Shown here: positions 789 through 53,400 of the stretch, piece after piece
How the letters are laid out: every line of letters begins with the position of its first letter
Numbering within the stretch: position 1 is the stretch's first letter
NCBI RefSeq assembly: GCF_000027125.1
Contig: NC_017626.1
DNA: 64,000 nt
Direction: 5' to 3' (one strand)
DNA from: Escherichia coli 042
GTDB lineage: Bacteria; Pseudomonadota; Gammaproteobacteria; Enterobacterales; Enterobacteriaceae
Translations under genes and position numbers: made by a program
Notes under the pieces: generated by a model
Seen by the model: only the letters and a program-made list of their open reading frames with translations
Database searches by the model: none
Told to the model about the DNA's origin: nothing

Positions 789-3700
789 TTAAGCCAGATG
801 CAGTGCTTCAAGACGACGAAGATCAAAGTCGTTTAATTCGTCGGTATAACTTTCGGTAATCGGTGCTGGCCAGTTGTTTGTCTCCAGGGCTTCGTTTATC
901 TGGCGTAGCGTCCGGCGATATTCCTGTCGACCAAGTTCCAGGAGTTCCTGCGAGGCTTCCACGACAGCCACCCAGTGATAGCCAGCATCTTTGTTGACGA
1001 AGATCCAGAAAAATTTTTCCAGGTTTGCCACATCGCAATACATTGCGGCGCTGAGGTGATAATCACGCTCAATAATTTCACGGTGCAGGCGATCTTTAAG
1101 TCGTTCCTGCCGCACATAACCGAGGCTGACTGACTTCACGTCGGCGCAAATGCTTTCGTATGGCAGCCGGATTTCGATATCAGGACGGACCCTGATTTCC
1201 AGCCCGGTTTCTTCATCAAACCCGAAATAGCTGATTTCAGATTTGCGATCCGGGTGGTTGAGTAGCCTTGCCGCATCAGTATTGTTTTGCAGTGCCGCGT
1301 GAATATTTTTTGCCTGTTCATACATATCCGGACTGATAAACGTTTTCCCGGCGTTTTCTTCTTGCTGGCGTTTTTGCCAGTCCTCCAGTGTCACCAGTTC
1401 CGGGCGAATTTTCCGTGCGATTTCGGTTAATTGCTCTTTCGTGCCACTGATGTTGTAAGGCAAAGATTTAGCACGTTCTTTTTTTGCCAGTTCTGGGTCT
1501 ACAGTTTCAATTTGATCCAGAAGTTGCTCCCGTGCTCCACTGGTTTTCAACAGAGGAGGGAGGCTTGCGTTGTATTCTTTAATACAGGCTTTCATTGCTG
1601 ATGCTGTGTGTTTTTCCCCCTCAGGGATACGCCGAAATTCCACCGGAAGCGAACCGTAAAGGATGCCTGTTTCTTCGGCCCCAGCACTTACAGACAGTGG
1701 CTGTATAAGAGTGCTGTTGTAGCTTTCGATCCACTCTTTCATCTGCTCTGGTGTCATCAGTGCTGGCAGACTGGCATTGTGTTTTTTAATGATGGCGATC
1801 AGTTCGTTAGAAGTAGTAACCACATATTCAGGAACCGGTACCGGAATGGCATATTCATCAGCGAATTTATCCGTTTCCAGAACATAGCTGTGAATGATCC
1901 TCCCACGCAGCAGTGCATCACTTTCCTCATTCGGAATAGTTCCGGCAATGTGCCGCCCGTGGTAATACATCAGGCTGATACGGGCATCCTTCAGCATCGT
2001 GCTGCTTATTCCGTTGGCGGAGTGATAAACCTCGTTCGGGAGGTTTTCATAGCGGCCTGGCTCGAAATATGACGGCCACATGATTTCAGTTGCTACAGGA
2101 GCTGACGCTTCACCAGTTTGATCACTGCAATCACGATGCGGATCGCTGCCAGCATTCTCATTGTGCGGATGTTCAGCGCCTTCCATTTCCACCGGATCTT
2201 TTTCCTTAGCTTCAACCTGATTCTCTTCATCGAATGTTTCCTGGTATGTTGCGTCGCCCATCACCGCGCCACAGTCAGGGCAGTTACTGCCGCCGGTCTG
2301 ACCGCAGGCGGCGCAGACTTTTTCCGGTTCCTGTTGCGCTTCTGGTTCATTTTGTCGCGAATTTTGGCCGTTTTGTTCCGATTTTCGGTCGTTCTGTTCC
2401 GTTTTTGGCTGATGCTGGTACACAGAATCGCGGGTCTGGATCCCCTTAACCCATTTCGGATCATTCGGGTCGCTAATCCCTTCAACAAATTCTCCGCGAT
2501 AGGCAGCCAGTAATTTGTCTGCATCAACAGAATTTACCTGTGACTGAGCATCCAGCGGCTGCGTGTCCTGATGATGTTCAGTTGCATCCGGTTCCACTGT
2601 TTCAGCCGTTGCCTGTTCATCTGCCATTGCGCCAGATGGTTGCGGTTTTTCTTCATCATTCTGTTTTCCCTCCTCTGTTACACGCTGCGGCATCGGGGCA
2701 GAGGAGCGACCGCAGGCAATATCCACGATTTCCGGATCAGGGTTGGCATGATCGGTTTCAGTCAGTACTTTGTTCAGATATTCTGTGACGTGCGCGGGGA
2801 TGACCTCGATCCCAATTGGTGCTTCTTTCACGGACGCAACCACGATGGCGCGAGAATAATCCAGCCCGCCAGGCATGGTGATGAATTTGTCGCGGAAAAC
2901 AGAAAAGGGCGGTTTATTTTCAGCGATAATTTCCTCAATGCGTTTAGCGTGTGCCGGATGAAGGTTATAGATGTCCACGTCCATTGAACGGGCCAGTACG
3001 CCAGTGGCTACGTCGCGCGCCAGTGACGTAAGATCGTGGACGAAACCTTCGCCGCGATCGGTGAGGTTCCCGCCGCCAGCATTAGCACCGGAAGCCGTGC
3101 GAGTGATGCGTGAAACACGATTACCCTTCATCCACTCTTTTGTCAGCAGTCCTCGATCGGTGTAGTCAGCGTTCAGGTATACTTCGAAAAAAGCAGTTAA
3201 CAGTCCCAAGTCTGAATTACCAGGATTAGGGAAAACTTTGTCAGTGTCACGAACCAGTTTGTGGAGATCGCGAATTTCCAGCGGGTCGAGCAGGCTGGTT
3301 TTGTGGGAAACAGCCAGGGCAGTAACAGCCGGTAGTTCTTCAGCCCGTGCAATGTGTAATGCCTGGAGTTCGCCGCGTGAAACGTGCGTTACCGGTTTTT
3401 CGCTGCCGTGTTGAGCAAGCCAACGAATGGGCAGTTCCTGGCCAGAAATTGGGAGTAGCATATTCTCCTCAATCTCAGTCATGTCTTCGCCGTTGACGTT
3501 GGTATTGCCTTGATAGTGAGCGTTGTCTGGTGCTGCTCCCGGTTTTAGTTCCCATGTCATGGAGTCTTTGCTGAGTTGATAGCGTTCACTCCAGGTAAAA
3601 TCGATCTCACCTTCAGCGGGCAGGTCATTAACGACAGGAAAATTCGTGGCAACAGCTTTAAAATAGCTGCTCAGTTTTTTACCTGACTTAACGATCTGGT

Positions 3701-6658: not shown

Positions 6659-6913
6659 ATGAACCAGAAAACACTTGAAGATGTAATCAAAACTGTTCGC
6701 GTTTCTGTTGTGGCCGACGTTTGTGGTGTCAGCCAAAGAGCAATCTACAAATGGATGGATAACGGAAAATTGCCTCGCACAGAATATACCGGCGAAACAA
6801 ATTACGCTGAAAAAATCGCTCATGCATCAAACGGATTATTTTCTGCCGATGCAATTTTAACTATTGGCAGAAATAAAACTACTACGAAAAAGCTGATGGG
6901 AGTTGATTCATGA
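6659..6913 (+). CDS. ydaS: Cro-like HTH protein YdaS
   Basis: Translation MNQKTLEDVIKTVRVSVVADVCGVSQRAIYKW; position right of repressor. Start uncertain. Confidence 0.7.
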   Translation: MNQKTLEDVIKTVRVSVVADVCGVSQRAIYKWMDNGKLPRTEYTGETNYAEKIAHASNGLFSADAILTIGRNKTTTKKLMGVDS

Positions 6914-7332
6914 AAATCAAGCATGAGCACATCGAATCAGTGTTGTTAGCCCTGGCTGCTGAAAAAGGGCAGGCATGGGTAGCCAATGCCATTACTGAAG
7001 AATATCTGCGCCAGGGGGGCGGCGAATTGCCTCTGGTTCCAGGCAAGGACTGGAACAATCAGCAGAATATCTATCACCGTTGGTTGAAAGGTGAAACGAA
7101 AACGCAAAGAGAAAAAATTCAGAAGCTGATCCCAGCAATTCTGGCAATCCTTCCGCGCGAGCTGCGTCACCGACTCTGCATCTTCGATACCTTGGAACGC
7201 CGTGCATTACTGGCGGCGCAGGAAGCGTTAAGTACGGCAATTGATGCGCATGATGATGCTGTCCAGGCCGTTTACCGGAAAGCGCATTTCAGCGGTGGCG
7301 GGTCTTCCGACGATTCTGTCATTGTTCATTAA
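6910..7332 (+). CDS. ydaT: YdaT (140 aa), toxic Rac protein repressed by RacR
   Basis: 140-aa ORF overlapping ydaS stop (ATGA); matches ydaT size and synteny. Confidence 0.8.
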   Translation: MKIKHEHIESVLLALAAEKGQAWVANAITEEYLRQGGGELPLVPGKDWNNQQNIYHRWLKGETKTQREKIQKLIPAILAILPRELRHRLCIFDTLERRALLAAQEALSTAIDAHDDAVQAVYRKAHFSGGGSSDDSVIVH

Positions 7333-10334: not shown

Positions 10335-11021
10335 ATGACCCCAATAAAAATATTTATGACTATTGCTGATTTCAAACGGCCTAAATTGGAGCTCCCAAAC
10401 GGGGCAAACAAACTACTACTGCACTCTTGCTGTGCTCCATGTTCCGGTGAAGTGATGGAGGCGCTTCAGGCCTCGGGAATCGACTATACCATCTTTTTCT
10501 ACAACCCGAACATTCATCCTCAGAAAGAGTATTTAATTCGTAAGGATGAGAATATTCGCTTTGCTGAACAACACGGCGTGCCATTTATTGATGCTGATTA
10601 CGACACAGACAACTGGTTTGAACGTGCCAAAGGAATGGAATGGGAGCCCGAGAGGGGGATCCGTTGTACCATGTGTTTTGACATGCGTTTTGAGCGGACA
10701 GCGCTGTACGCTGCTGAAAATGGTTTCAGTGTGATCAGCAGTTCACTGGGCATTTCACGCTGGAAAAATATGCAGCAGGTTAACGACTGTGGGCGGCGAG
10801 CCGTCGCGCATTATCCGGGCATGGTGTACTGGGATTATAACTGGCGCAAGCAGGGCGGCTCGTCCCGCATGATTGAAATCAGCAAGCGCGAAAAATTCTA
10901 TCAGCAGGAATATTGTGGCTGTGTGTATTCTCTGCGCGATACCAATCTACACCGCAAATCTCAGGGACGCCCTCTTATCAAAATTGGTCAACTCCACTAC
11001 GGTAAAGAAGAGAAGGAGTGA
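10335..11021 (+). CDS. DUF208/QueH-like Fe-S protein (epoxyqueuosine reductase family)
   Basis: N-terminal [21 protein letters not shown] and C-terminal YCGCVYSL motifs typical of QueH. Start codon uncertain (10335 or 10356). Confidence 0.65.
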
Positions 11022-11201
11022 TTTTATGGAGCACCTTTCTTATTGATTTCATATTGGCGAGGTAGCGGGAGTTAAGTAAAATTGCTGCGGGTGCTTGAGG
11101 CTATCTGCCTCAGGCATGAACACCAAAAGGCAGATAGAGAAAAGCCCCAGTTAACATTACGCGTCCTGCAAGACGCTTAACATTAATCTGAGGCTCAATC
11201 T

Positions 11202-11414
11202 ATGCTGAACACATGTAGGTTAGCCTCTTACGTGCCGAAAGGCAAGGAGAAGCAGGCTATGAAGCAGCAAAAGGCGATGTTAATCGCCCTGATCGTCATC
11301 TGTTTAACCGTCATAGTGACGGCACTGGTAACGAGGAAAGACCTCTGCGAGGTACGAATCCGAACCGGGCAGACGGAGGTCGCTGTCTTCACAGCTTACG
11401 AACCTGAGGAGTAA
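11202..11414 (+). CDS. mok: mok-like overlapping reading frame (translational coupling to hok)
   Basis: 70-aa frame that contains the hok ORF in-frame, as in hok/mok loci. Confidence 0.5.
   Translation: MLNTCRLASYVPKGKEKQAMKQQKAMLIALIVICLTVIVTALVTRKDLCEVRIRTGQTEVAVFTAYEPEE
11259..11414 (+). CDS. hok: Hok/Gef family membrane toxin (51 aa)
   Basis: MKQQKAMLIALIVICLTVIVTALVTRKDLCEVRIRTGQTEVAVFTAYEPEE: Hok-family TM helix plus conserved C..E..R. Confidence 0.85.
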   Translation: MKQQKAMLIALIVICLTVIVTALVTRKDLCEVRIRTGQTEVAVFTAYEPEE

Positions 11415-11880
11415 GAGACCGGGCGAGGGAGAAATCCCTCGCCACCTCTGATGTATTATGCATCCTCAACGCACCCACACTTAACCAGTTTTGGCGAGTT
11501 TATTTTATCTGTAAATATTTTTATAAAAATAATGCCCACGCACAGCATAAAACAAAAAGTATTACAGATAAAAAAGGAGCGTAATGTGCAGATTTGTTGT
11601 TTTCCATATTTACTCACCTTAATATGATTGATCTTGATAGGATTGTTATTTCAGTGGTTTTCAAATGAGATATTATGGTGATCTGGTAGATTTGCATAAC
11701 ATTAAAATTTAATTTGTTTAACCGCTTTTAATAATAAGCGTTGTTTTTATCCCGGCAATCTGTTGTTTGGTTTTTATTCCATTAAGGTGGGGACTTTACA
11801 CTGGAGCCAGTTTATTTATACTTCATACGTCAGCCTGAACAACTGGCATCTGCTGCACTGCGCCATCGAGAGATTGAGAA

Positions 11881-12480
11881 ATGGCGCATATACAACTGGT
11901 CAAACAAACTTCTTCTGGTTTACTTCTCCCGGCGACGCCGGAGAGTTGCGATTTTCTGCATCAAATCAAAATAGGTGAGTGGATACACGCAGACTTTAAG
12001 CGTGTGCGTAACTACGCATTCCACAAGCGTTTTTTCAAACTCCTGCAACTGGGATTCGATTACTGGACTCCGGTCGGTGGGGCGATCACACCTCGCGAAC
12101 GAGAAATGGTGTTCGGCTTCGTTGATTACCTGTGTGAATCAGTAGGCAGGGAACATACGCCAGCTCTGAGTGATGCCGCGGAACAATATCTGAATACCGT
12201 TGCGACACGCAGAACCCGGGATATGGCATTGCTCAAATCATTTGACGCTTTCCGCGAGTGGGTAACCATTCAGGCCGGATTTTACACCGAGCATTTTTAT
12301 CCTGATGGTAGTCGTGGGCGTCGGGCGAAATCCATCGCGTTTGCGAATATGGACGAAACCGAGTTTCAGCAGGTTTATAAATCTGTACTGAATGTGCTGT
12401 GGAACTGGATTCTGTTCCGTAAATTTTCCTCTCCGGAACAAGTCGAAAATGTGGCCGCGCAGCTACTGGAGTTTGCGTAA
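11881..12480 (+). CDS. Phage nin-region protein of unknown function, 199 aa
   Basis: ORF immediately upstream of and abutting the YbcO-like gene. Confidence 0.55.
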   Translation: MAHIQLVKQTSSGLLLPATPESCDFLHQIKIGEWIHADFKRVRNYAFHKRFFKLLQLGFDYWTPVGGAITPREREMVFGFVDYLCESVGREHTPALSDAAEQYLNTVATRRTRDMALLKSFDAFREWVTIQAGFYTEHFYPDGSRGRRAKSIAFANMDETEFQQVYKSVLNVLWNWILFRKFSSPEQVENVAAQLLEFA

Positions 12481-12770
12481 TGGTGGATTTACGTAAAGCG
12501 GCGCGGGGCCAGATGTGCCAGGTCAGAATCCCTGGCTACTGCAATCACAATCCCGAAACTTCTGTGCTGGCGCATTACAGGTTGGCAGGGACGTGCGGAA
12601 CAGCGACAAAACCACACGATATGCAGGCAGCGATTGCCTGTAACTCATGCCACGATTTAATCGACGGGCGGGTAAAAACCAGCGATTACACCAAAGAAGA
12701 ATTACGCCTGATGCATGCAGAAGGTGTTTTTCGCACGCAAGAAATCTGGAGAAAGGAAGGTTATTTATGA
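12480..12770 (+). CDS. YbcO-like DUF1364 phage protein (putative nuclease), 96 aa
   Basis: Conserved Cys pattern (CQVRIPGYCN...CNSCHD) as in DLP12 YbcO. Confidence 0.7.
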   Translation: MVDLRKAARGQMCQVRIPGYCNHNPETSVLAHYRLAGTCGTATKPHDMQAAIACNSCHDLIDGRVKTSDYTKEELRLMHAEGVFRTQEIWRKEGYL

Positions 12771-13303
12771 TTTACCCAACAAATACAGGCAAAAGCGGGG
12801 AACACCTTCGTCTCACCACGCTGGAAAGTGTCTGGATTCAGGGAAAACTGCGCATGTGGGGGCGCTGGTCGTATATTGGCGGCGGTAAGACGGGGAATAT
12901 GTTTAACCAGTTGCTGGCGTCAAAAAAATTGACGAAAACAGCCATCAATGAAGCCCTGCGCAGAATGAAAAAAGCGGGAATAGAGAAAGCTGAGCTGGAA
13001 GCGTTTTTGCGAGAGATGATCAACGGCAAGCAAAAGAGCTGGCTGGCGCATTGTACTGATGCAGAGGCACTAAAAATTGATAGTGTTATAGGTGAAGTTC
13101 TGGCGGATCATCCAGGACTACTAAATGTCCTGAGTCAGCGTTATGTGGGGCGAGGGATGAGTAAGAGAAGGATGGCCGAGTTATTAAACGAACAGTACCC
13201 AGAGTGGGCGTTGATTACATGCCGACGTCGTGTTGATCAGTGGTTGCGTGTTGCTGAGTTCATTTTGTATTCACCTATGAGAGAAGCGTTCGATTATGCT
13301 TAA
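12767..13303 (+). CDS. Late-gene antiterminator Q-like protein, 178 aa
   Basis: Position (last gene before tRNAs and lysis cassette), overlap with upstream gene, RBS GAAAGGAAGG; family assignment from memory only. Confidence 0.55.
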   Translation: MIYPTNTGKSGEHLRLTTLESVWIQGKLRMWGRWSYIGGGKTGNMFNQLLASKKLTKTAINEALRRMKKAGIEKAELEAFLREMINGKQKSWLAHCTDAEALKIDSVIGEVLADHPGLLNVLSQRYVGRGMSKRRMAELLNEQYPEWALITCRRRVDQWLRVAEFILYSPMREAFDYA

Positions 13304-13399
13304 AAAATCATTGCAAAATGAGCCACAAACTGCTTCAATTTCGGTACGCTTCGCATAGCTGTATCGCGAGGCAAATTAAGCGCATGAACTTTAATACAA

Positions 13400-13426
13400 C
13401 CCGCCATTGAGCGGGTTTTGTTGTTT
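13400..13426 (+). terminator. Candidate tR'-type intrinsic terminator
   Basis: cccgc-cattga-gcggg stem-loop followed by ttttgttgttt. Confidence 0.4.
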
Positions 13427-13558
13427 CTGTGGCGTGATATCAGAAACGACATTTAATAATCGCCTTCAAAATAAATTTGTTTATACATTGTCATGTATAT
13501 TTTAAGTGAAAGTGAATTATTCACATAAAATAAAAACACATAAATAAATTTACATAAC

Positions 13559-13590
13559 TTGACGCAAAGTGTTGTTGCGATTGGAATATT
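13559..13590 (+). promoter_or_regulatory. Candidate sigma-70 promoter for the tRNA pair
   Basis: TTGACG then 17-nt spacer then TGGAAT; AT-rich UP-like tract upstream. Confidence 0.25.
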
Positions 13591-13665
13591 AAATCGTATC
13601 ATCGAAAACGGTTCTGAGGGGGAACTCTTCTTTGCTCGGTGATATCGCTCCCCTGAAGAACCAAT

Positions 13666-13741
<76 letters not shown>

Positions 13742-13744
13742 TAT

Positions 13745-13819
<75 letters not shown>

Positions 13820-15308: not shown

Positions 15309-15769
15309 ACAGAGTAACCGCGATTATCTCCGCTCTGGTTATCTGCATCATCGTCTGCCTGTCATGGGCTGTTAATCATTACCGTGATAATGCCATTACC
15401 TACAAAGCGCAACGCGATAATGTGAAGGAAAAACTCAACCAGGCGACCGCAATCATTACTGACATGCAGATACGCCAGCGTGATGTTGCTGCACTCGATG
15501 CAAAATACCTGAAGGAGTTAGCTGATGCGAAAGCTGAAAATGATGCTCTGCGTGATGATGTTGCCGCTGGTCGTCGTCGGTTGCACATCAAAGCAGTCTG
15601 TCCGTCCGTGCGTGAAGCCACCATCGCCTCCAGCGTGGATAATGCAGTCTCCCCCAGACTGGCAGACACCGCTGAACGGGATTATTTCACCCTCCGGGAA
15701 CGACTGGTAATGATGCAGGCCCAACTTGAAGGTGCTCAGCAATACATAACCGAACAGTGTTTAAAGTAA
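15305..15769 (+). CDS. Spanin inner-membrane subunit Rz
   Basis: N-terminal TM, coiled-coil body, follows endolysin. Confidence 0.8.
15525..15710 (+). CDS. Spanin outer-membrane lipoprotein Rz1 (embedded in Rz, +1 frame)
   Basis: Lipobox LVVVGC, Pro-rich mature part, fully nested in Rz. Confidence 0.75.
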
Positions 15770-15906
15770 AATCTTAACTACAATATGATTCATTTTGATG
15801 ATTGTTTCATAAGGAACAGTGAAGTAAGATCTAAGATGAGTTAAATTTTATACAGTATAATCATAATGTTGCAGCAAGGTGGTTATAATTGAAAGAATAT
15901 TTAGAT

Positions 15907-17364
15907 ATGAATACATCTCATGTAAGAGTTGTTACTCATATGTGTGGGTTCCTGGTTTGGCTCTATAGTCTTTCAATGTTGCCACCAATGGTTGTAGCAT
16001 TGTTTTATAAAGAAAAAAGCCTGTTCGTTTTCTTTATAACTTTCGTTATATTTTTTTGCATTGGTGGCGGAGCGTGGTATACAACTAAGAAATCTGGTAT
16101 TCAATTACGTACCCGTGATGGGTTTATTATAATTGTAATGTTTTGGATTTTGTTTTCTGTTATTAGTGCATTCCCTTTATGGATTGACTCAGAACTTAAT
16201 TTAACGTTTATTGATGCTCTATTTGAAGGGGTTTCTGGAATAACAACAACAGGAGCAACTGTAATTGATGATGTTAGTTCATTACCTCGGGCATATTTGT
16301 ACTATCGGTCACAGTTAAATTTTATAGGTGGCTTAGGAGTTATTGTTCTGGCGGTTGCTGTATTGCCATTATTGGGTATTGGTGGTGCAAAGCTTTATCA
16401 GTCAGAAATGCCAGGGCCATTTAAGGATGACAAACTTACTCCCCGCCTGGCCGATACGTCACGGACACTTTGGATAACTTATTCTTTATTAGGTATTGCT
16501 TGTATTGTCTGTTATAGACTTGCAGGAATGCCTTTGTTTGATGCTATTTGTCACGGGATATCCACAGTTTCGCTTGGTGGTTTCTCAACTCATAGCGAGA
16601 GTATCGGATATTTTAATAACTATTTGGTTGAGCTGGTGGCTGGTTCTTTTTCCCTGCTATCGGCTTTCAACTTCACCCTTTGGTATATTGTTATTAGCAG
16701 GAAAACGTTAAAACCTTTAATCAGAGATATTGAACTTCGTTTCTTTCTGTTAATAGCCTTAGGGGTGATCATTGTTACCTCTTTCCAGGTCTGGCATATA
16801 GGTATGTATGACTTGCCTGGAAGTTTTATTCATTCGTTTTTTCTTGCCAGCTCCATGCTCACTGATAATGGTTTAGCTACGCAGGATTACGCAAACTGGC
16901 CCACGCACACGATAGTGTTTTTGCTGTTGTCAAGTTTCTTTGGGGGATGTATAGGTTCAACTTGTGGTGGAATTAAGTCACTTCGATTTCTTATACTTTT
17001 CAAACAAAGCAAACACGAGATAAACCAGCTTTCTCATCCCAGAGCGTTGTTGAGTGTAAATGTAGGAGGGAAGATAGTTACAGATCGTGTAATGAGGTCT
17101 GTATGGAGTTTCTTTTTTCTTTATACTCTCTTCACGGTGTTTTTTATACTGGTGTTAAATGGTATGGGATATGATTTTCTTACATCATTTGCAACAGTGG
17201 CTGCATGTATTAATAATATGGGATTAGGTTTTGGGGCTACTGCATCGTCATTCGGAGTGCTTAATGACATTGCAAAATATTTAATGTGCATAGCTATGAT
17301 TCTTGGTCGCCTTGAAATTTATCCTGTTATTATATTGTTTTCAGGTTTTTTTTGGCGCTCCTAA
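15907..17364 (+). CDS. trkG: Potassium uptake protein TrkG (485 aa)
   Basis: Polytopic membrane protein matching TrkG/TrkH; AT-rich relative to flanks. Confidence 0.85.
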   Translation: MNTSHVRVVTHMCGFLVWLYSLSMLPPMVVALFYKEKSLFVFFITFVIFFCIGGGAWYTTKKSGIQLRTRDGFIIIVMFWILFSVISAFPLWIDSELNLTFIDALFEGVSGITTTGATVIDDVSSLPRAYLYYRSQLNFIGGLGVIVLAVAVLPLLGIGGAKLYQSEMPGPFKDDKLTPRLADTSRTLWITYSLLGIACIVCYRLAGMPLFDAICHGISTVSLGGFSTHSESIGYFNNYLVELVAGSFSLLSAFNFTLWYIVISRKTLKPLIRDIELRFFLLIALGVIIVTSFQVWHIGMYDLPGSFIHSFFLASSMLTDNGLATQDYANWPTHTIVFLLLSSFFGGCIGSTCGGIKSLRFLILFKQSKHEINQLSHPRALLSVNVGGKIVTDRVMRSVWSFFFLYTLFTVFFILVLNGMGYDFLTSFATVAACINNMGLGFGATASSFGVLNDIAKYLMCIAMILGRLEIYPVIILFSGFFWRS

Positions 17365-17501
17365 TATATGGCTGATTTATAATTGTGAGTTTAATATTAT
17401 ATTGACTCACTCATTGATCCAATACCTAACTTTACCAGCAACACCTCCGCCCCCAGTAGCACTGGCTGCTGGGGTGCGTTTTATTCATAAAGCAAGGCTG
17501 T

Positions 17502-48933: not shown

Positions 48934-50067
48934 TTAGAACTGATAAACCAGACCTAAAGCGACAATATCATCGGTAGAGATGCCGTTGGCAGCGTAGAAG
49001 CTGTCATCTTCATCCAACAGGTTGATTTTATAGTCAACATAGGTGGACATGTTTTTATTGAAATAGTAAGTCGCGCCAACATCGGCGTATTTAACCAGAT
49101 CTTTATCATCAACACCTGCCGGGTTGTCTGCACCACCGGCAGCGTGCAGGTCACGGCCTTTAGACATCAGGAAAGAGACTGCCGGACGCAGACCAAAATC
49201 AAACTGGTACTGTGCAGTAACTTCAAAGTTCTGGGTTTTGTTTGCAACAGCATAATCGCTGTCGCCAAACGGGGTCATATTACGCGTTTCTGAATACATG
49301 GTTGCCAGGTAAATATTGTTAGCATCGTATTTTAGCCCAGCAGTCCACGCGTCTGCTTTATCACCACCCGCCGCAGTATGGTTAACCTGGTCATTGGTGC
49401 GGTCAGAAGAGGTGTATGCCGCACCAGCGCTAAAGCCCATGCCTAAATCATATGTTGTGGAAAGACCCCAGCCGTCACCGTTTTCATGGCGAACATCACG
49501 TCCGTTGTTGGTGCCTTCCTGACCATTACTGGCACCTTCGTTGTTACCTTGATACTGCACCGCGAAGTTCAGACCATTTACCAGACCGAAGAAATCAGTA
49601 TTACGATAAGTCGCGACGCCATTGGCACGACCAGTCATAAAGTTGTCTGCATTGGTATAAGAGTCACCGCCAAATTCAGGCAGCATATCGGTCCAGCCTT
49701 CGATGTCGTACATTACGCCATAATTACGTCCGTAATCGAAAGAACCGTAATCTGCAAATTTCAATCCGGCAAATGCCAGACGGGTCCATGACTGGTTTTT
49801 TGAGGATTCAGTGTTGTTTGCCTGAATATTGTATTCCCATTGACCGTAGCCAGTGAGTTGATCGTTAATTTGCGTTTCGCCTTTAAAACCCAGACGCGCA
49901 TAGCTCTGGTCGCCATCTTTCGCTGAATTATCAGAAAAATAATGCAGGCCATCAACTTTGCCATACAGATCTAATTTGTTGCCGTCTTTATTATAAACTT
50001 CGGCTGCATGTGCAGCACCTGCGGCGAGCAGGGCAGGAATTAAAAGTGCCAGTACTTTGCTTTTCAT
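48934..50067 (-). CDS. ompN: Outer membrane porin OmpN
   Basis: Signal peptide; OmpC-family porin ending in F. Confidence 0.9.
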
Positions 50068-50294
50068 TGAATAAATCCTTTAGTTATTTTATTTGCCTTT
50101 TATCCCCATTTCGGGGAGTGAAAACATCCTAAAGGAGATGTTCAGTTAGCCGATAAATATCATTTGTTACGCCTTAAGTAAAACCTTAATCAAATAATTC
50201 TTCTGAAATGATAATAAGTCTGGTGAATGTATTGGAGATAATACATACAAAATAAAAATTATACTTTTAATTTGCTATACGTTATTCTGCGCGG

Positions 50295-50403
50295 GTTATA
50301 TGCCTTTATTGTCACAGATTTTATTTTCTGTTGGGCCATTGCATTGCCACTGATTTTCCAACATATAAAAAGACAAGCCCGAACAGTCGTTCGGGCTTTT
50401 TTT
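50295..50403 (+). ncRNA. micC: MicC small regulatory RNA
   Basis: Sequence GTTATATGCCTTTATTGTCACAG... ending in gcccgaac...gttcgggc + T-run; between ompN and ydbK. Confidence 0.85.
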
Positions 50404-50432
50404 TAGAATTGGATAATTCTTATCCAGAGCAT

Positions 50433-53400
50433 TTAATCGGTGTTGCTTTTTTCCGCTTTTCCGGCCATTTGTGCCAGGAAGTCATAGCGTTTTTGCAAAT
50501 CAGCTGCAGCATCTTTCCATAACTGTTCTGCCACTTCTGGCTGCTGCGAATTCAGACGACGGAAACGTTGCTCATGCAGTAACGTTTCTTCCAGTGCTTC
50601 TGACGGCGGGCGTGAATCCAGTGCCAGCGGCAGTTTGCCTTCATCGGCTCGACGTGGATCGAAGCGATATAGCGGCCAGAAGCCGGTGGCAGTGAGTTGG
50701 CGCATCTGGTCGTGACTGAGTGCCAGATCGTAACCATGCTCTTCACACGGGCTATAAGCGATGATCAGCGATGGTCCCGGATACGCTTCTGCTTCCTGAA
50801 TCGCTTTCACTGTCTGGTTCAGCTGTGCACCAAGAGAAATTTGCGCCACATAAACATGACCGTACATCATCATACTGACGCCAAGATCTTTACGCGCTTT
50901 ACGTTTGCCATGCTCGCCAAACTTAGTTACTGCACCCAGCGGTGTCGCTTTCGACGCCTGACCACCGGTGTTGGAATAGCATTGCGTATCCAGCACCAGA
51001 ATGTTGACGTTTTCCGTCAAACTCAATACATGATCCAGACCGCCAAAGCCGATATCGTAAGCCCAGCCGTCGCCACCAATCAGCCAGATTGATTTTTCCA
51101 CCAGTGCATCTGCGTCACGTAGCAGTTCATGTGCTTCGGCAACATCTTTGAGTTGCTGGCGTAAAGCTGCAACCTGTTCACGACGAACCTCTGGCGTGGC
51201 GTCTGATTTCAACGCAGTCAGTAATTCCGCCGGGATTTTATCGGCAAATTGATCCAGCAGACGCAGCACGCGGACACGGTGTTGATCGACCGTCAGGCGG
51301 AAACCAAGGCCAAATTCGGCGTTATCTTCAAACAGCGAGTTCGCCCATGCCGGTCCACGACCGTTGGCATCGGTAGTATACGGTGTAGAGGGCAGGTTAC
51401 CGCCATAAATTGAAGAACATCCGGTGGCGTTAGCGATCAACATTCGGTCGCCATAGAGCTGAGTCAGCAATTTAATATACGGCGTCTCGCCACAACCGGA
51501 GCAAGCACCTGAATATTCAAACAGCGGTGTAATCAGCTGCGATGTACGAATATCAATACGTTCCAGTTTGCTACGGTCGATTTCTGGGAGGTTGAGGAAG
51601 AAATCGTAATTGATTTTCTCTTCTTCGACATGTTCCAGGCGCGACATCATATTGATGGCTTTGATCTCTGGATTCTGACGGTCTTTCGCCGGGCAAACTT
51701 CGACGCACAGGTTACAGCCGGTGCAATCTTCCGGTGCCACCTGCAAGACATATTTCTGCCCGCGCATATCACGCGATTTCACATCCAGCGAATGCAGGCT
51801 GGCAGGGGCGTTTTCCATCGCTTCAGGCGGTACCACTTTTGCGCGAATAGCGGAGTGTGGGCAAGCAGCGACGCAGTGGTTACATTGGGTACAGAGTTCC
51901 TCTTTCCAGATGGGGATCTCTTCGGCGATATTGCGTTTTTCCCAGCGCGTAGTGCCCATCGGCCAGGTGCCGTCTGGCGGCAGCGCCGAAACGGGGAGGG
52001 CATCACCAAGCCCGGCGAGCATCGCCGCGGTTACGGTTTTCACGAAATCAGGGGCGGCATCGGAAACCACTGGCGGTCGATTGGCGCTGTGCGGATTTAC
52101 TGGTTGCAGCGGAACTTCTTCTACGGATTCACGTGCCAGCGCCAGAGCCTGCCAGTTGCGTTCCACCAGATCCTGACCTTTGCTACTGTAACTTTTGGCA
52201 ATCGCACCCTGCAATTCTGCGAGGGCGCTATCGCCAGGCAGAATTTGCGTAAGATGGAAAAAAGCCATCTGCATGACGGTATTAATACGGGCTGCCAGGC
52301 CACATTCGCGGGCGATTTTCGCCGCGTTAATCACATAGAAGCGCGCTTTTTTCTGGTTTAACACGGCCTGAACTTCCTGCGGCAAGCGCGACCATACTTC
52401 ATCTGCGCTGTACGGCGTGTTGAGCAGGAAAATGCCGCCAGGTTTTAAACGTTCAGCCATCTGATATTTATCGATAAACTGCAACTGGTGGCAGCCAACA
52501 AAATCAGCCTGGGAAATGAGATAAGCGGAACGAATCGGCTGCTCACTCACGCGAAGGTGAGAAACCGTCAGGCCGCCCGCCTTTTTGGAGTCGTAAACAA
52601 AATAGCCCTGTGCGTACCACGGCGTGGAATTACCGATAATCTTGATATTGTTTTTGGTCGCGGAAACGCTGCCATCACTACCAAGGCCATAAAACAAGGC
52701 TTCAAGTTTCGCCGAGTTTGGCAGGGTGTTTTCCGGCAACGGTAGTGACAGATTGGTCACATCATCATAAATACCAACCGTAAAGCGCGCTTTCGGTTTA
52801 GCCGCGTTGAGCTCGGCAAATACCGCCAGTACACAGTCCGGGCCAAATTCTTTGGATGAAAGACCATAGCGCCCACCAATGACACGGGGCAGGGTTTCGC
52901 GCTCGCCATTATTAAAGGCTTCTGCCAGTGCAGTCATCACATCCAGATAGAGCGGTTCTGCCTGGGCACCGGGTTCTTTGGTTCTGTCCAGTACCGCCAC
53001 GCTGCGTACGGATCCCGGTAGAGCTTGTAGCAAGTGTTTGGCGGAGAAGGGACGGTACAGGCGAACTTTCAGCACGCCGACTTTTTCGCCACGGGTTAGC
53101 AATTCATCAACCACTTCTTCACAGGTGCCAATGGCAGAGCCCATCAGGATAATCACCCGTTCCGCTTGCGGATGCCCGTAATACTCAAACGGCTGATACT
53201 GACGACCTGTCGCGGCAGCGAAATCATTCATCGCCTGTTCAACATGGTCGTAAACTGCGTTGTACCACGGGTTGGTGGCTTCACGTGACTGGAAGTAGGT
53301 GTCCGGGTTAGCCGAGGTACCGCGAATCACCGGATGCTCCGGATTCAGCGCGCGGGCGCGATGAGCATCAATTTCGGCCTGCGGCATCAGTTCCAGAATC

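Follow-up and report, generated by a model that had tools for sequence, protein, structure and literature searches.

A hok 3′ untranslated region joined to a conserved AT-rich cassette, with a candidate small-peptide gene and a candidate nin/Q promoter, in a lambdoid prophage of Escherichia coli 042

Morons are defined as extra genes that have their own promoter and terminator, show an atypical GC content and are inserted between conserved phage genes. In the hok/sok family, represented by hokD/relF of prophage Qin and hok of plasmid R1, the toxin mRNA carries a fold-back inhibition (fbi) element, which is complementary to the 5′ end (tac) of that mRNA, and then a terminal hairpin. A third point of comparison is the Salmonella Gifsy-1 antQ operon (SL2582–SL2579), which has its own mapped transcription start site (TSS), 1.6 kb upstream of antQ (PMC4825925). 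The present analysis concerns positions 11415–11880 of a 64,000-nucleotide stretch of E. coli 042 (contig NC_017626.1, assembly GCF_000027125.1), hereafter the window, where a Rac-type lambdoid prophage of non-K-12 E. coli has a gap between the hokD toxin gene and the nin/Q operon. An earlier note, made from the sequence of the window, had described this gap as an AT-rich spacer free of open reading frames (ORFs). The interval is two parts joined end to end: the 3′ untranslated region (3′ UTR) of the hok mRNA (11415–11512) and an AT-rich cassette (11520–11857). The reading that we favour, on which our confidence is evenly balanced because all of the evidence is comparative, is that the cassette is a conserved divergent unit with a putative small-peptide gene at one end and a putative nin/Q promoter at the other.

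The cassette, of about 340 bp, has variable cargo on one side and the nin/Q operon on the other. When the sequence from 11490 to 11880 was used as the query, it was matched at a coverage of at least 80% in 1162 of 5426 complete E. coli genomes (∼21%). The copies fell into three identity bands, at least 95%, 90–95% and ∼76%, with most copies at 90% or above, and among the matches listed no annotated feature lay under the cassette. The alignments showed that conservation begins sharply at 11520 and stops near 11857. Three upstream contexts were observed, namely the hok 3′ UTR, the strong terminator of an IteA/IteS anti-phage operon and an AT-rich DUF1971 region. Downstream, the cassette was followed either by DUF1367-DUF1364-DUF1133(Q) or by a 92-amino-acid (aa) gene and then DUF968, RusA and Q. 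Its position was constant, immediately upstream of the nin/Q operon, while the cargo behind it varied. The earlier note had named lack of conservation among the grounds for abandoning its proposals; what was found is clearly the opposite, an element that is widely conserved.

Conservation was unevenly distributed along the cassette. When the window was compared with the ∼76% clade (L004-type), identity was 83% across the small ORF, 62% across 11608–11695, 85% across 11696–11741, 48% across 11742–11789 and 91% across 11790–11857. The cassette is thus made of three conserved islands parted by fast-evolving DNA. The block containing the ORF and the block containing the promoter-like site occurred together in 154 of 155 copies, 200–208 bp apart.

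The first island is an unannotated 28-codon ORF on the minus strand (11521–11607), encoding MENNKSAHYAPFLSVILFVLCCAWALFL. The peptide has a polar N-terminus and a C-terminal segment of 17 residues, FLSVILFVLCCAWALFL, which are all uncharged and mostly hydrophobic. Copies of the ORF were gathered in three ways, by a pattern based on the ORF, by an independent pattern based on the promoter and by BLAST. It was intact and 28 aa long in 152 of 152 full-length copies, which represented 16 peptide variants. Of ∼30 candidate ORFs it was the only ATG ORF kept across haplotypes (66/67), the remaining haplotype having an in-frame upstream ATG. The left boundary of the cassette is the stop codon of this ORF, and in two contexts a bidirectional terminator abuts that stop codon. 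All six indel runs of the cassette fall outside the ORF. A Shine-Dalgarno sequence, AAGGTG (11615–11620, minus strand), lies 7 nt before the ATG.

To describe the substitution pattern, a minimum-spanning tree of 20 ORF haplotypes was used, on which 40 events were inferred. Synonymous events numbered 15 where 10.0 were expected (P = 0.046), and disruptive events, in which the start codon is hit or a stop codon is gained or lost, numbered 0 against ∼3.5 expected (P = 0.019). In divergent comparisons the ratio of non-synonymous to synonymous polymorphism (pN/pS) was ∼0.3–0.45, from a small sample, and the non-synonymous changes were mostly hydrophobic-for-hydrophobic exchanges among A, V, I, L, F and C. 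Taken together, the comparative data favour an unannotated small protein-coding ORF over a small RNA (sRNA). The description of the interval as ORF-free consequently stands only in part: no ORF of at least 60 aa is contained in 11415–11880, but the label is misleading given the conserved 28-codon frame with its Shine-Dalgarno sequence. The word spacer misleads as well, as hok mRNA 3′ UTR makes up the first ∼100 nt and the remainder is conserved in about a fifth of complete genomes.

The third island holds a candidate sigma-70 promoter, TTTACA-16-TATACT (11795–11822, plus strand), which matches the consensus at 10 of 12 positions. It sits 58 nt before the DUF1367 ATG and is oriented towards the operon. 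Matches of this quality are rare, with only seven in 128 kb (both strands of the window), and the two hexamers were identical in 66 of 66 haplotypes, even where the spacer varies or a different gene follows. As far as sequence can tell, this invariant site facing nin/Q supports the promoter region that the earlier note had proposed. The predicted nin/Q transcript leader (11829–11880, plus strand) is conserved to 11857 whatever gene follows; its columns are 94–100% identical except 11857 (69%), and it is common to the DUF1367 and the 92-aa/DUF968 contexts. At the far end of the leader, RNAalifold gave a consensus 7-bp hairpin, GCGCCAT...ATGGCGC (11860–11887, plus strand), around the DUF1367 start codon, and the alternative context with the 92-aa ORF has the equivalent stem TGCGCCA...TGGCGCA. 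The DUF1367 gene and the 92-aa ORF both begin with ATGGCGCA. This common start and stem suggest either a recombination joint that the two contexts share or control of translation.

The operon that this promoter would serve (11881–13303, plus strand) consists of a DUF1367/NinB-like gene (11881–12480), DUF1364 (12480–12770) and the Q-like DUF1133 gene (12767–13303). As the DUF1367 protein matches PHROG 319 (NinB/Orf, E = 3.9e-70), and the strain 190 RefSeq annotation gives the same gene order, the earlier placement of the gap between hok and nin genes was accurate. The arrangement resembles that of Gifsy-1, where several genes, the last of them for a Q-like antiterminator, form an operon with a TSS of its own immediately before the first gene (PMC4825925). 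The distances differ, as ∼0.94 kb separates the Q-like gene from the candidate promoter, which precedes DUF1367, compared with 1.6 kb between antQ and the Gifsy-1 TSS. No sequence similarity between the two was established, and the IsrK Rfam model gave no match. SL2582 is presumably a DUF1367 gene and the gene content of the antQ operon presumably homologous. The locus may also be compared with the nin region of lambda, whose terminators tR2–tR4 likewise lie between the replication genes and Q; here too there are rightward terminator-like hairpins in that position, at the end of hok and at 11723–11750. However, there is no sequence relationship, the hairpins here either belong to the cargo (hok) or are very weak, and no N/nut-type boxA-boxB was recognised. 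The published operator of the CII-like YdaT (TTGATTN6AATCAA) was also considered, and none was present in the interval. In the window as a whole the only site with zero mismatches, TTGATTCATGAAAATCAA, is at 6903–6920, presumably in the immunity region.

The second island is a 46-bp block (11696–11741) with 85–98% identity between clades, which contains the invariant TTTTAATAATAAG and is flanked by DNA of 48–62% identity between the window and the L004-type copies. It holds the −10 hexamer of a promoter-like site on the minus strand, TTGCCG-16-TATTAT (11731–11758, 9/12 match), which could drive the small ORF from a TSS near 11724. The same block includes part of a weak plus-strand hairpin, CGCTT-TTAATAAT-AAGCG, followed by a T-run (11723–11750), which the terminator scan reported as terminator-like and which we regard as doubtful. 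In the divergent clade its stem has decayed to G-U pairing and the T-run is broken, and no terminator was reported by the scan. A further promoter-like site on the plus strand, TTTCCA-16-TATGAT (11601–11628, 9/12 match), lies antisense to the start of the small ORF. The evidence for it is weak, although its −10-like hexamer was kept in place, as TATGAT, CATAAT or AATAAT, in 65 of 66 haplotypes.

Between the small ORF and the minus-strand promoter-like site, an inverted repeat of 12 nt (I5, 92% complementary) forms a candidate helix in the 5′ UTR on the minus strand. One arm (11614–11625) contains the Shine-Dalgarno sequence and the other (11670–11681), UCACCAUAAUAU, is its anti-Shine-Dalgarno partner. 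Across 31 haplotypes 96.7% of the cells of this helix were paired, against 28–44% in slid controls; one compensatory UA-to-CG change was found, and several C-to-U changes leave G-U pairs. We treat pairing with the Shine-Dalgarno sequence in the 5′ UTR as suggestive only. For the minus strand, RNAalifold preferred other short hairpins over this helix. A plus-strand mini-ORF in the same region, with the Shine-Dalgarno sequence AAGGAG and an ATG at 11584, was discounted because it is 12 aa long in most copies and 9 aa in the divergent clade.

These features can be assembled into a working model. The self-contained cassette is carried by lambdoid E. coli prophages of the Rac and Qin types at the boundary between the cargo slot and nin/Q, where it would act as a divergent control region with one gene at each end. 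Leftwards, on the minus strand and convergent with hok, a 28-codon gene with its own Shine-Dalgarno sequence would encode a single-pass hydrophobic peptide, and in its 5′ UTR an upstream anti-Shine-Dalgarno sequence could pair with the ribosome-binding site. Rightwards, a sigma-70 promoter with a leader of ∼55 nt would restart transcription into DUF1367-DUF1364-Q past the cargo terminators. A promoter downstream of the cargo makes sense given that the cargo upstream (hok, IteAS) is terminated. The AT-rich DNA between the ORF and the promoter would consist of promoter and 5′ UTR sequences and, judged by composition, be a likely target of H-NS.

Several observations weigh against this model. The coding signal is modest, with P values of ∼0.02–0.05 on 40 inferred events, and the hydrophobicity of the peptide is not independent evidence because T-rich codons give hydrophobic peptides by default. 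Searches of Pfam, PHROGs and NCBIfam with the peptide returned no family and only lipoprotein-signal-like noise. A scan with the peptide pattern, covering one genome per species, matched in E. coli only, so that the peptide had no relatives outside the species. The Shine-Dalgarno sequence reads AAGGTG in 120 of 152 copies and is weakened to AAAGTG or AAAGCG in the other 32. The 5′ UTR helix was derived from the window sequence itself, and when it is read as plus-strand RNA it is still 92.6% paired, which amounts to a slight strand preference. The predicted minus-strand mRNA folded no better than shuffled sequences (z = −0.81). No minus-strand promoter conserved in all three clades was found: TTGCCG-16-TATTAT was present in 58 of 66 haplotypes and was missing from the most divergent clade. 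On the other side of the cassette, a constitutive promoter before Q would put a lysogen at risk, and some silencing mechanism must therefore be assumed. We also considered whether an AT-rich spacer before DUF1367 is general among phages and rejected the idea, as it was not found in the Gifsy-like Salmonella and Klebsiella phages inspected, where the DUF1367 gene follows its upstream neighbour without such a spacer.

The simplest rival to the divergent cassette is that no gene exists beyond the hok 3′ UTR and that the AT-rich DNA serves passively as a mosaic junction or as a recombination linker, being young, carried along with the nin/Q module and spread by homologous exchange, its ORF and promoter being chance features. 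The restriction to E. coli and the preponderance of copies at 90% identity or above mean that much of the conservation is recent common ancestry; the cassette sits exactly at module boundaries, a 28-codon open frame has a chance of ∼10% in such DNA (estimated from its composition), and the marginal coding statistics and the lack of family matches also agree with this view. It nevertheless fits poorly with the patchy conservation against the ∼76% clade, in which three islands at 83–91% stand out from intervening DNA at 48–62%, and with an ORF that came through 40 substitution events without a stop gained, a start lost or a stop lost, was avoided by every indel and is the only one of ∼30 candidates kept in all clades. 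A 10/12 promoter match that is rare in the window and yet invariant is also hard to attribute to chance. We therefore regard a passive junction as unlikely, while giving it real weight. Silencing by H-NS provides another explanation without a peptide. H-NS preferentially coats horizontally acquired DNA of such composition in E. coli, and under this hypothesis the interval would be an H-NS-bound, xenogeneically silenced promoter region whose sole role is to keep nin/Q off in the lysogen. With 31% GC across 300 bp, the cassette is richer in AT than any other stretch of the window, and a conserved promoter-like element in it faces Q, so that H-NS binding to the AT-rich part is plausible from composition. 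The A-tracts, however, have no helical phasing. The two A/T strings that the earlier note had cited as phased were located at 11518–11533 and 11702–11719, but the AA/TT Fourier power at 10–11 bp was no higher than in dinucleotide shuffles (fraction at or above the observed value, 0.38–0.91). No match to the high-affinity H-NS core TCGATAAATT with two or fewer mismatches occurred in 11415–11860. An H-NS target and nothing else would also leave unexplained both the synonymous excess of the open frame and the coincidence of the module boundary with its stop codon, and we consider this explanation improbable.

A locus resembling the type I toxin-antitoxin systems would read the same features differently, with a 28-aa membrane toxin, a long Shine-Dalgarno-sequestering 5′ UTR and a repressing plus-strand antisense RNA running from ∼11635 to the hairpin at 11723–11750. 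The small hydrophobic ORF of conserved length falls within the size and topology of such toxins (<60 aa, one predicted transmembrane helix), the sequestering helix shows wobble and compensatory changes, and the plus-strand site antisense to the ORF start, with its −10-like hexamer in three forms in all but one haplotype, is face-to-face with the candidate minus-strand promoter. The two transcripts would overlap by ∼90 nt, and within this overlap lies the 46-bp block, which is highly conserved on both strands. The locus moreover adjoins another type I system, hok/sok. With Ibs/Sib, Ldr/Rdl, ShoB/OhsC, ZorO/OrzO and TisB/IstR it shares a peptide below 30 aa in length, largely a single hydrophobic helix, a locus of ∼300 bp that is rich in AT, a candidate sequestering helix in the 5′ UTR and a candidate overlapping antisense promoter. 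It differs from them in having no Rfam match to an antitoxin RNA, no convincing terminator for the antisense RNA and a single-copy rather than tandem arrangement, and the peptide is not known to resemble Ibs, Ldr, ShoB, ZorO or TisB in sequence. The terminator hairpin of the antisense RNA has 5 bp only and is not detectable in the divergent clade, the candidate sRNA folded no better than shuffles (z = −0.86), RNAalifold gave no strong consensus structure and no Rfam family was matched. Promoter-like hexamers are in any case expected by chance in DNA of 30% GC, five having been found in a 1.2-kb region against 2.1 expected, and the one copy knocked out by IS1 is uninformative. We rate such a system as quite unlikely. 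The proposals of an origin-like element or an sRNA locus, which the earlier note had raised, did not hold up and are already largely refuted by the sequence, with AT-richness and the weak hairpin with its T-run (11723–11750) as the only points for them. The interval contained no iterons, no tandem repeats, no repeat families beyond chance two-copy matches and no DnaA box at one mismatch or fewer, and the replication-type genes ydaU/ydaV are ∼3 kb upstream. Rfam 15, applied at gathering thresholds and at E ≤ 10, gave only sok/hok, MicC and tRNAs, with nothing above chance in 11415–11880; one candidate transcript per strand was folded and neither fold was significant, and RNAalifold consensus structures on both strands consisted of short weak hairpins, with no stable or covarying structure for a plus-strand sRNA gene. 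Such a gene or an origin is very improbable.

A bolder version of the divergent cassette can be formulated, which we advance with considerable doubt. In this version the cassette would be an unrecognised, E. coli-specific mobile unit made of a small membrane-peptide gene and a Q-operon promoter. The peptide might be a type I-like toxin or a modulator that the lysogen expresses, controlled by the sequestering 5′ UTR and an overlapping antisense transcript, and the shared divergent region would couple it to the late-gene switch.

Compared with morons, the cassette shows the same atypical composition (31% against 48% GC) and the same presence/absence polymorphism among otherwise related prophages. 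Its 28-codon ORF is also opposed to the phage operon, and a bidirectional terminator abuts it in two contexts. Nevertheless, its gene has only 28 codons, a promoter was not found in all clades, and, unlike a simple moron, it also contains a promoter-like block that is directed at the nin/Q genes of the phage itself. A tblastn search of phage records matched just four E. coli phages. Six peptide variants were looked up by exact match in a collection of 15 billion proteins and none was found, plausibly since an ORF of this length is passed over by gene callers. No mention of the peptide string was found in a literature collection of 8 million papers.

If the 28-codon ORF is translated, a widespread prophage membrane peptide would join the growing set of missed small proteins; the cassette illustrates that AT-rich prophage gaps described as ORF-free can hide genes below the length limits of gene callers. 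If TTTACA-16-TATACT is active, prophages of the Rac and Qin types would drive the Q antiterminator from a dedicated promoter behind the cargo slot. An active promoter would further explain how terminated cargo, such as hok and the IteAS defence genes, can be inserted without loss of late-gene expression, and it would mark where lysogens must silence that expression.

The left part of the interval was identified from folding and homology. It lies directly 3′ of a Hok/Gef-family coding sequence (CDS) that is preceded by a sok/mok leader: the hok mRNA 5′ leader and sok antisense region is at 11089–11264 (plus strand; Rfam RF01794 sok, scoring 119.6 bits where the gathering threshold is 59), a mok-like ORF overlapping hokD starts at 11202, and the hokD CDS occupies 11259–11414 (plus strand; from the ORF list, and annotated as hokD in strain 190). 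The 3′ UTR (11415–11512, plus strand) comprises a stem-loop at ∼11421–11444, the fbi element CCTCAACGCACCC (11464–11476, plus strand), which is complementary to the mRNA 5′ end GGGTGCTTGAGG (11089–11100), and a terminal hairpin with a T-run. The fold of 11085–11512 had a free energy of −161 kcal/mol (z = −5.3), with the 5′ end closed onto the 3′ UTR; in both the minimum free energy (MFE) and the centroid structures GGGUGCUUGAGG at the 5′ end was paired with CCUCAACGCACCC in the fbi element. Such tac-fbi closure is the defining feature of hok-family mRNAs. Alignment with other copies showed that the terminator is degenerate in the window (CCAGTTTTGGCGAG + TTTATTTTAT, 11484–11512, plus strand), while many homologous copies carry the intact stem CCCGCTTCGGCGGG and a T-run at the aligned position. 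The fbi element folds back onto the 5′ end, and the degenerate hairpin would end the transcript.

The likeness to hok/sok accounts for 11415–11512 only. In K-12, the Qin hokD shares the 3′ UTR up to 11501, with 95% identity across window positions 11245–11501, but K-12, a strain with available H-NS ChIP data, lacks the cassette and the gene rem fills its slot in Qin. A query with the whole 466-nt interval matched 4325 of 5426 complete E. coli genomes, because the hok 3′ UTR part alone suffices for a match; coverage reached at least 80% in just 666. In annotation, the left 100 nt of the gap should be assigned to the hok transcript.

The interval is bounded by the hokD stop (11414) and the DUF1367 start (11881). 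The cassette is also carried by strain 2009C-3133 and by strain 190 (NZ_CP020520, 2637769–2638234). A copy of the prophage in strain 190 (locus L001), which is 99.8% identical and annotated in RefSeq, has the gene order racR, ydaS, ydaT, ydaU, ydaV, DUF1627, DUF977, queH, hokD, the gap, DUF1367, DUF1364, DUF1133, tRNA-Thr, tRNA-Gly, essD, rrrD and trkG. The AT-richness reported by the earlier note was confirmed, with a GC content of 36.7% across 11415–11880 and 30.7% across 11520–11819, against 48.3% window-wide; on the 300-bp scale just 0.17% of windows are equally low. The longest ORFs contained in the interval are of 58 aa (plus strand, 11451–11627) and 53 aa (minus strand), and both were rejected as genes since they extend past the conserved boundary and are context-specific. 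A 71-codon ORF with a TTG start (11763–11978) crosses the right edge in a frame other than that of DUF1367.

Further observations were made on the slot and its cargo. In two loci (L007, 1–2974; L002, 592–3985) the cargo directly to the left of the cassette is the IteA/IteS anti-phage system, an ATPase and an S8 peptidase, whose operon ends in a bidirectional terminator with a 15-bp stem that abuts the stop codon of the small ORF. With this cargo beside the cassette, the slot behaves as a hotspot for cargo and defence genes; a literature search on IteAS or lambdoid cargo hotspots returned nothing specific. In strain PK8566 (L006, ∼2231–3000) an IS1X2 element is inserted within the 28-codon ORF, near window positions 11584–11589. 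This is the sole disrupted ORF among the copies identified by BLAST, two viral-contig copies being cut by contig ends. In L063 an unidentified insertion parts the ORF from the promoter block. The hok context alone has a 20-nt inverted repeat (11503–11522/11554–11573, 85% complementary), through which the middle of the small ORF pairs with positions immediately beyond the stop codon. Both the MFE and the centroid structure of the minus-strand RNA included this repeat, which could be a 3′ stabiliser or the footprint of a recombination joint. In K-12 Qin, the 346-bp gap between rem and ydfU contains an intact 92-codon ORF (L008, 4307–4585, minus strand; NC_000913.3, 1644306–1644584) that is unannotated in the RefSeq record. 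By eye only, it closely resembles the annotated hypothetical protein WP_001429486.1, which precedes DUF968 genes in other prophages.

Elsewhere in the window, a second AT-rich gap (13261–13660, GC ∼0.30) separates the Q-like gene from tRNA-Thr and tRNA-Gly (13666–13816) and, judged by its position, is likely the late-promoter/qut region. Low GC was also noted in patches at 15711–16300, 17101–17440 and 50021–50460. The MicC sRNA at 50292–50412 (Rfam, 127.5 bits) indicates that the window there has left the prophage and entered the host ompN/ydbK neighbourhood. Just upstream of hok/sok, the prophage carries queH (epoxyqueuosine reductase) as cargo at 10335–11021, and the same gene is found in related prophages, including L004 and L005.

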